A stretch of 64,000 nucleotides of DNA from the NCBI RefSeq assembly GCF_003334315.1, contig NZ_QOWR01000012.1. One strand, given 5' to 3'. The translations under genes were made by a program, and so were the position numbers. Shown here piece by piece: positions 50,763 through 50,861 of the stretch; the stretch's first letter is position 1; every line of letters starts with the position of its first letter. This DNA comes from Escherichia coli (GTDB lineage Bacteria; Pseudomonadota; Gammaproteobacteria; Enterobacterales; Enterobacteriaceae). Under the pieces are notes generated by a model. It was not told the origin of the DNA and made no database searches. It saw only the letters and a list, made by a program, of their open reading frames with translations.

Positions 50763-50861
50763 TGTCTGATGCGCTACGCTTATCAGGCCTACGTGAACTC
50801 TGCAATATATTGAATTTGCATGCTTTTGTAGGCCGGATAAGGCGTTTACGCCGCATCCGGC
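50763..50861. repeat. BIME of RIP/RIB type, second copy (REP - IHF-like linker - REP)
   Basis: Near-identical to the 34061..34158 element, with the same caatatattgaattt linker. Confidence 0.75.

Follow-up and report, generated by a model that had tools for sequence, protein, structure and literature searches.

A BIME-1 repeat between the convergent genes rhlE and ybiA of Escherichia coli and its variation across strains

A BIME-1, also called RIP (repetitive IHF-binding palindromic element) or RIB, consists by definition of a Z1 REP and a Y REP that are inverted relative to each other and separated by an L linker, which is long, well conserved, and in many cases furnished with a site for the DNA-bending protein IHF; the unit occurs singly (PMC3333891). 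Their published size of approximately 140 bp (PMC1187871) agrees with the ~153-nt unit described below. PMC2817692, citing the original RIB paper, states that the sequence between the two REPs interacts with IHF, and IHF binding by the family is cited in both that work and PMC3333891. BIME-2 and atypical BIMEs likewise contain Y REPs of this family, lie outside genes, and fold into hairpins. In BIME-2, however, Y is combined with Z2 rather than Z1, the linkers are short (S, s, l, or r) and without an IHF site, and the units build tandem arrays; these features are absent from the element studied here. Cleavage by DNA gyrase has been linked with BIME-2 rather than with BIME-1 (PMC6379681); BIME-2 also matches the Rfam family naRNA4, a feature that the element does not share. 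The REPINs of Pseudomonas, which are mobilized by RAYT, resemble BIME-1 in that two inverted REPs and a spacer make up a compound nonautonomous unit, and the analogy has been drawn explicitly (PMC2817692). REPINs nevertheless belong to other REP sequence families, no linker with an IHF site has been described for them, and their halves are nearly identical, whereas the BIME-1 unit studied here combines two types of half, Z1 and Y.

The element lies within a 64-kb stretch of Escherichia coli chromosomal DNA (the window), where the convergent genes rhlE and ybiA leave a gap of 231 nt; its place in MG1655 is approximately 832,266-832,418. It shares with BIME-1 the inverted Z1 and Y REPs, the long L linker with an IHF-consensus site, the single unit, and a size of ~140 to 150 bp with flanks. 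No difference of substance from BIME-1 was found; the T at 50765, in the head of Z1, is a C in MG1655 and in the family consensus. Elsewhere in the window, two arrays that mix Y REPs with further REP units (24264-24459 and 56012-56138) are of the BIME-2 or atypical kind, and both score above the gathering threshold for naRNA4 (RF02564).

Structure and class of the element

The element is extragenic and situated at the 3′ ends of two genes. It is single, with no adjoining repeat units, and the family search pattern matches once at each of the two window loci that carry a full copy. The coordinates of its parts, of the surrounding features, and of the other full-length copy in the window (copy 1) are collected in Table 1.

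Table 1. Coordinates of the rhlE-ybiA element, its surroundings, and copy 1 (positions within the window)
Feature	Position	Strand	Description
rhlE	49347-50711	+	Stop position 50711
Hairpin	50718-50738	+	GC-rich, perfect 9-bp stem ATGCCGGGC-TAT-GCCCGGCAT; 7 nt after the rhlE stop codon
Left flanking motif	50741-50763	+	GGCTGATGAACAAACGCAAAACT; outside the span of the earlier note; aligns with 34040-34060 of copy 1
Z1-type REP	50764-50792	+	Ends in CTAC; 29/30 against published Z1 GCCTGATGCGCTACGCTTATCAGGCCTACG (PMC11208160); hairpin predicted in both transcripts
IS621 target	50782-50792		ATCAGGCCTAC; within the Z1 REP
L linker	50793-50827		35 nt; aligns with 34090-34123 of copy 1
IHF-consensus core	50803-50815	-	ATTCAATATATTG; 12/13 match to WATCAANNNNTTR in a pattern scan
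Y-type REP, inverted	50828-50862	-	Starts with GTAG on the plus strand; reverse complement 35/35 against published Y TGCCGGATGCGGCGTAAACGCCTTATCCGGCCTAC (PMC11208160)
Y REP loop	50844-50847		GTTT; IS1397 insertion point in another isolate
Right flanking motif	50863-50893	+	TTTCACAACAAGCACTTGTCAGCAATTTGA; outside the span of the earlier note; aligns with 34159-34187 of copy 1
ybiA	50943-51425	-	Stop position 50943
Copy 1 of BIME-1	34040-34187	+	Between convergent uvrB and ybhK
Copy 1, left flank	34040-34060		
Copy 1, Z1 REP	34061-34089		
Copy 1, L linker	34090-34123		
Copy 1, inverted Y REP	34124-34158		
Copy 1, right flank	to ~34187		

Alignment of 134 copies of the family showed that the repeated unit spans ~153 nt (50741-50893) and comprises five modules: left flank, Z1 REP, L linker, inverted Y REP, and right flank. 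The earlier note had marked 99 nt at 50763-50861 as a RIP-type BIME. That span captured the REP-linker-REP core but was displaced by about 1 base at each end and missed the conserved flanks, which add ~22 nt on the left and ~30 nt on the right. In each taxon group with more than one copy, the left flank is 62 to 90% and the right flank 63 to 83% identical to the consensus; the exceptions are one single-copy contig (57%, left) and two short contaminant-like contigs (~30%, right).

The REPs were typed against the published Z1 and Y sequences quoted in the Methods of PMC11208160. Positions 50764-50793 of the window read GTCTGATGCGCTACGCTTATCAGGCCTACG, with the T at 50765 as the sole mismatch to the published Z1, and the Y REP is a member of the repeat family D1. 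The CTAC at 50789-50792 and the GTAG at 50828-50831 both face the linker, which places the two REPs in inverted orientation. RNA folds of both strands predicted the two REP hairpins together with a small linker hairpin (z-scores, -3.9 and -3.6), the latter pairing 50801-50805 with 50816-50820 over 5 bp. The identity of the L linker to the 134-copy consensus is 0.83. Covariation in the linker hairpin would be uninformative on these copies, since the search pattern itself fixes most of the stem bases and the reasoning would be circular.

The IHF-consensus core carries a single mismatch to its consensus, at position 2. Since the window holds 74 sites that match the IHF pattern with no more than one mismatch, the motif taken by itself says little; what gives it weight is its fixed place in a conserved linker. 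The 13-mer is identical and in the same place in copy 1 (34100-34112), and the consensus of the Rfam model RF02751 also contains an IHF-consensus match. A search of PMC8407004 for IHF data at this locus found that these genes are not mentioned there.

The GC-rich hairpin downstream of rhlE is a locus-specific feature that the aligned family members do not conserve, so we regard it as context rather than as part of the repeat. Neither strand shows a T-run after it, and it was not called in the terminator scan. The orthologous alleles of MG1655, S65EC, and FCI48 retain it, and it may protect the 3′ end of rhlE. At a further site in the window, a molybdenum cofactor (Moco) riboswitch was recorded at 35388-35532 (plus strand, 103.6 bits); by the K-12 gene order, it should lie upstream of the moa operon.

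Every sequence-level defining feature that was tested is present, and the element at 50741-50893 is on that account filed as BIME-1, of which it is an ordinary copy. At the sequence level nothing speaks against this membership. The identification made in the earlier note is thus upheld, with both REP types, their inversion, the L linker with its IHF-consensus match, and the extragenic, single occurrence all borne out; BIME-1 itself is already well described. The RefSeq annotation of MG1655 lists no repeat_region at either locus. The original GenBank record of K-12 presumably labels such elements "RIP." Taken as a whole, the preferred reading is that of a noncoding BIME-1 of ~150 bp and five parts between convergent rhlE and ybiA, with roles in IHF binding, mRNA 3′-end behavior, and RAYT-mediated spread that follow the published family work; we assign it a probability of roughly 0.93.

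Distribution of the family

A 47-nt linker query matched all 5,426 complete E. coli genomes (5,426/5,426), with a median of at least 24 places per genome, a figure that is a lower bound owing to the E-value limit and to counts given as minima per record. A strict pattern (CCTAC, a gap of 6 to 14, CAATNNATTGAATTTG, a gap of 5 to 14, and GTAGG) was scanned against one genome per species and returned 118 stretches, which together with the two window copies yielded the 134 aligned copies. All five modules are conserved among them, with flanks at ~60 to 85% identity to the consensus in taxon groups with more than one copy.

The sources of these stretches are Escherichia (E. coli, E. albertii, E. 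whittamii, and two further species) and Pseudocitrobacter, besides five contigs in unrelated assemblies. Pseudocitrobacter spp. carry the full five-module BIME-1 and are the only finds outside Escherichia under the strict pattern, apart from those contigs; with one genome per species, the pattern found no BIME-1 in Salmonella, Klebsiella, or Citrobacter. This restriction may be an artifact of exact matching or may reflect a real, patchy distribution. The five odd contigs are 261 to 6,179 nt long (three are below 1 kb), carry a BIME-1 of the E. coli type, and come from assemblies labeled Bacteroides, Desulfosporosinus, Methylobacterium, Alkalicoccobacillus, and Collinsella, two of which are metagenome-assembled genomes; they are probably enterobacterial contamination or mis-binning. 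Tandem arrays of 4 to 5 linker-containing units, spaced ~107 to 230 nt apart, were seen at four loci of Escherichia sp. MOD1-EC7003. Since BIME-1 is by definition single-copy, these arrays are atypical L-type BIMEs that have been amplified in one Escherichia lineage.

Proposed roles and competing readings

By analogy with published work on the family, the element would act both as DNA and as RNA. At the DNA level, IHF would bind to the linker and bend it sharply. In the transcripts, the predicted REP hairpins would form part of the 3′ untranslated regions of rhlE (plus strand) and of ybiA (minus strand), where they would block 3′-to-5′ exonucleases and partly stop read-through, and in this way the levels of both convergent messages may be tuned. 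The family would have spread through the REP-associated Y1 transposase (TnpA-REP, or RAYT), as proposed in PMC3333891 and PMC2817692. The REP halves double as landing sites for REP-specific insertion sequences, as other strains show directly at this locus. The RAYT gene of K-12 is located far away from this region.

According to a 2026 preprint, higher expression of both members of a convergent gene pair is associated with a REP between them, and such REPs are ascribed a role as terminator and stabilizer; the same work describes the effects of REPs as context dependent, with half-lives that are not uniformly changed. A translation-coupled effect has been reported for REPs no more than 15 nt from a stop codon (PMC12306157) and should not apply here, because both REPs are more than 50 nt away from either stop codon.

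We consider it improbable that the main function of the element is to terminate rhlE and ybiA transcription in both directions, with the IHF motif as an incidental feature. Such a role would fit the location between convergent genes, the strong hairpins predicted on both strands, and the 78 REPs that the 2026 preprint places inside predicted bidirectional terminators. However, the terminator scan of 50500-51100 found no hairpin with a T-run within the element, and the linker and its IHF core are conserved over 134 copies from two genera, which termination alone does not explain. Termination also overlaps with the BIME-1 reading rather than replacing it. A promoter scan of the same region found no sigma-70-like promoter, and an intrinsic terminator or promoter within the element was rejected on these scans.

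A match to the Rfam sRNA family RF02751 (ES036/CssrF) raises a different reading, in which the linker is a free-standing sRNA gene transcribed from the minus strand. The match covers 50785-50827, that is, the linker and the last 8 nt of Z1, and copy 1 has its counterpart at 34082-34123; both are on the minus strand and exceed the gathering score of 37.6 (43.3 and 43.4 bits, respectively), and the predicted 5-bp hairpin in the linker would also suit an sRNA. The 43-nt model consensus, however, is the same as the minus-strand L linker joined to the GTAGGCCU REP tail, and the model also matches unrelated BIME-1 copies at three loci of E. coli E69. The linker occurs at the many places per genome given above, and the region 50500-51100 offers neither a sigma-70-like promoter nor a terminator to serve an sRNA. 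The matched strand is that of ybiA, and the simplest account of any RNA from it is a piece of the ybiA 3′ untranslated region retained by the REP hairpins. Literature searches for ES036 and for CssrF yielded nothing relevant. RF02751 thus appears to model the BIME-1 repeat itself, which is the simplest reading because no promoter was found and dozens of copies exist per genome; its match points to an Rfam family built on the BIME-1 linker and does not speak for a separate gene at this locus. A separate sRNA gene is accordingly very unlikely.

The earlier note had also paired the element with the copy at 34061-34158, stating that the linker and REP halves of the two closely match. The alignment agrees: the two loci (50740-50880 and 34040-34180) are 90% identical over a 146-column pairwise alignment, and the cores alone are 88% identical (0.879). 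A repeat search links them through family D3 (77 nt, 86%) and within D1 (39 nt, 97%). When 50741-50893 was compared by BLAST with the whole window, 34041-34184 was recovered at 85% over 147 nt (E = 9e-40), and the remaining matches were single REP halves only. On these comparisons, chance is excluded as the source of the likeness. In the 134-copy alignment, the two copies rank only 41st and 93rd of 133 among each other's neighbors. They are ordinary members of a dispersed family and not a special pair, so the word partner is apt for common family membership, and not in the sense of recent duplicates or of two functionally coupled elements. That the two loci reflect a recent segmental duplication or a chance resemblance rather than a repeat family is suggested by their being the only full-length copies in the window but has a negligible probability, given the BLAST E-value, a likeness that ends at the element boundaries between unrelated flanking genes, dozens of further copies per genome, and neighbor ranks on which recent duplication was rejected.

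Variation of the locus across strains

The intact arrangement of rhlE, element, and ybiA is present in 4,304 of the 5,426 complete E. coli genomes, and it is kept in divergent alleles whose flanking identity is ~91%. The rhlE-dinG interval is a replacement hot spot in which ybiA and the BIME-1 are swapped out together in some strains. In O157:H7 and O145, the type III effector gene espX2 takes their place (for O145, as judged from annotation and gene content only), while strain F5446 carries the toxin-antitoxin pair paaA2-parE instead. BLAST found no trace of BIME-1 at the O157:H7 and F5446 loci.

Two different insertion sequences have entered this copy. In JNE141411 (2724-4000 of locus L003), IS621, an IS110-family element with a bridge-RNA recombinase, is inserted at ATCAGGC-CT-AC in the tail of Z1, where the core CT corresponds to 50789-50790; this sequence in Z1 is a published natural target of IS621 (PMC11208160). 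A junction-specific query found the same insertion in 148 of the 5,426 complete genomes. A broader junction query matched 1,168 genomes at 80% coverage but is not specific to the locus, as it also matched IS621 in other BIME-1 copies. In isolate CB6837 (3151-4581 of locus L128), IS1397 of the IS3 family sits in the loop of the Y REP and has duplicated the 4-bp GTTT, consistent with the published preference of IS1397 for palindromic units.

In one strain, O111:H11 88.0502, the segment 50789-56072 is inverted, which turns around the 5.3-kb ybiA-dinG-ybiB-hcxB block. The breakpoints are the Z1 tail of this BIME-1 and the tail of an inverted Z2 REP at ~56061-56072, within the array at 56012-56138. 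One inversion junction carries IS621. The other is free of insertion sequences and reads TTATCAG-TAT-CTAC in place of TTATCAG-GC-CTAC, where TAT corresponds to the terminal bases at the right end of IS621; such a sequence would fit the loss of a second IS621 copy there through a deletion between CAG microhomologies. More generally, the REP halves of this BIME-1 might be recurrent sites of recombination at which the rhlE-dinG interval is remodeled in wild E. coli, with inversions from REP to REP as a regular natural product of IS621, and the same boundary may help in the exchange of ybiA for espX2 or the toxin-antitoxin pair, a combined proposal that we put forward as possible but doubtful.

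For annotation, the locus should be labeled as a BIME-1/RIP repeat and neither as a new regulatory element nor as an sRNA gene, and the same applies to the ES036 match. The element is otherwise a routine example of a family that is thought to supply IHF with fixed bending sites at the ends of genes and to tune the stability of mRNA 3′ ends. The new information is limited to the behavior of this copy as a site of insertion and rearrangement across strains: one BIME-1 has been struck by two different REP-specific insertion sequences and has served as a breakpoint of a natural inversion, which points to these repeats as soft spots for genome rearrangement.
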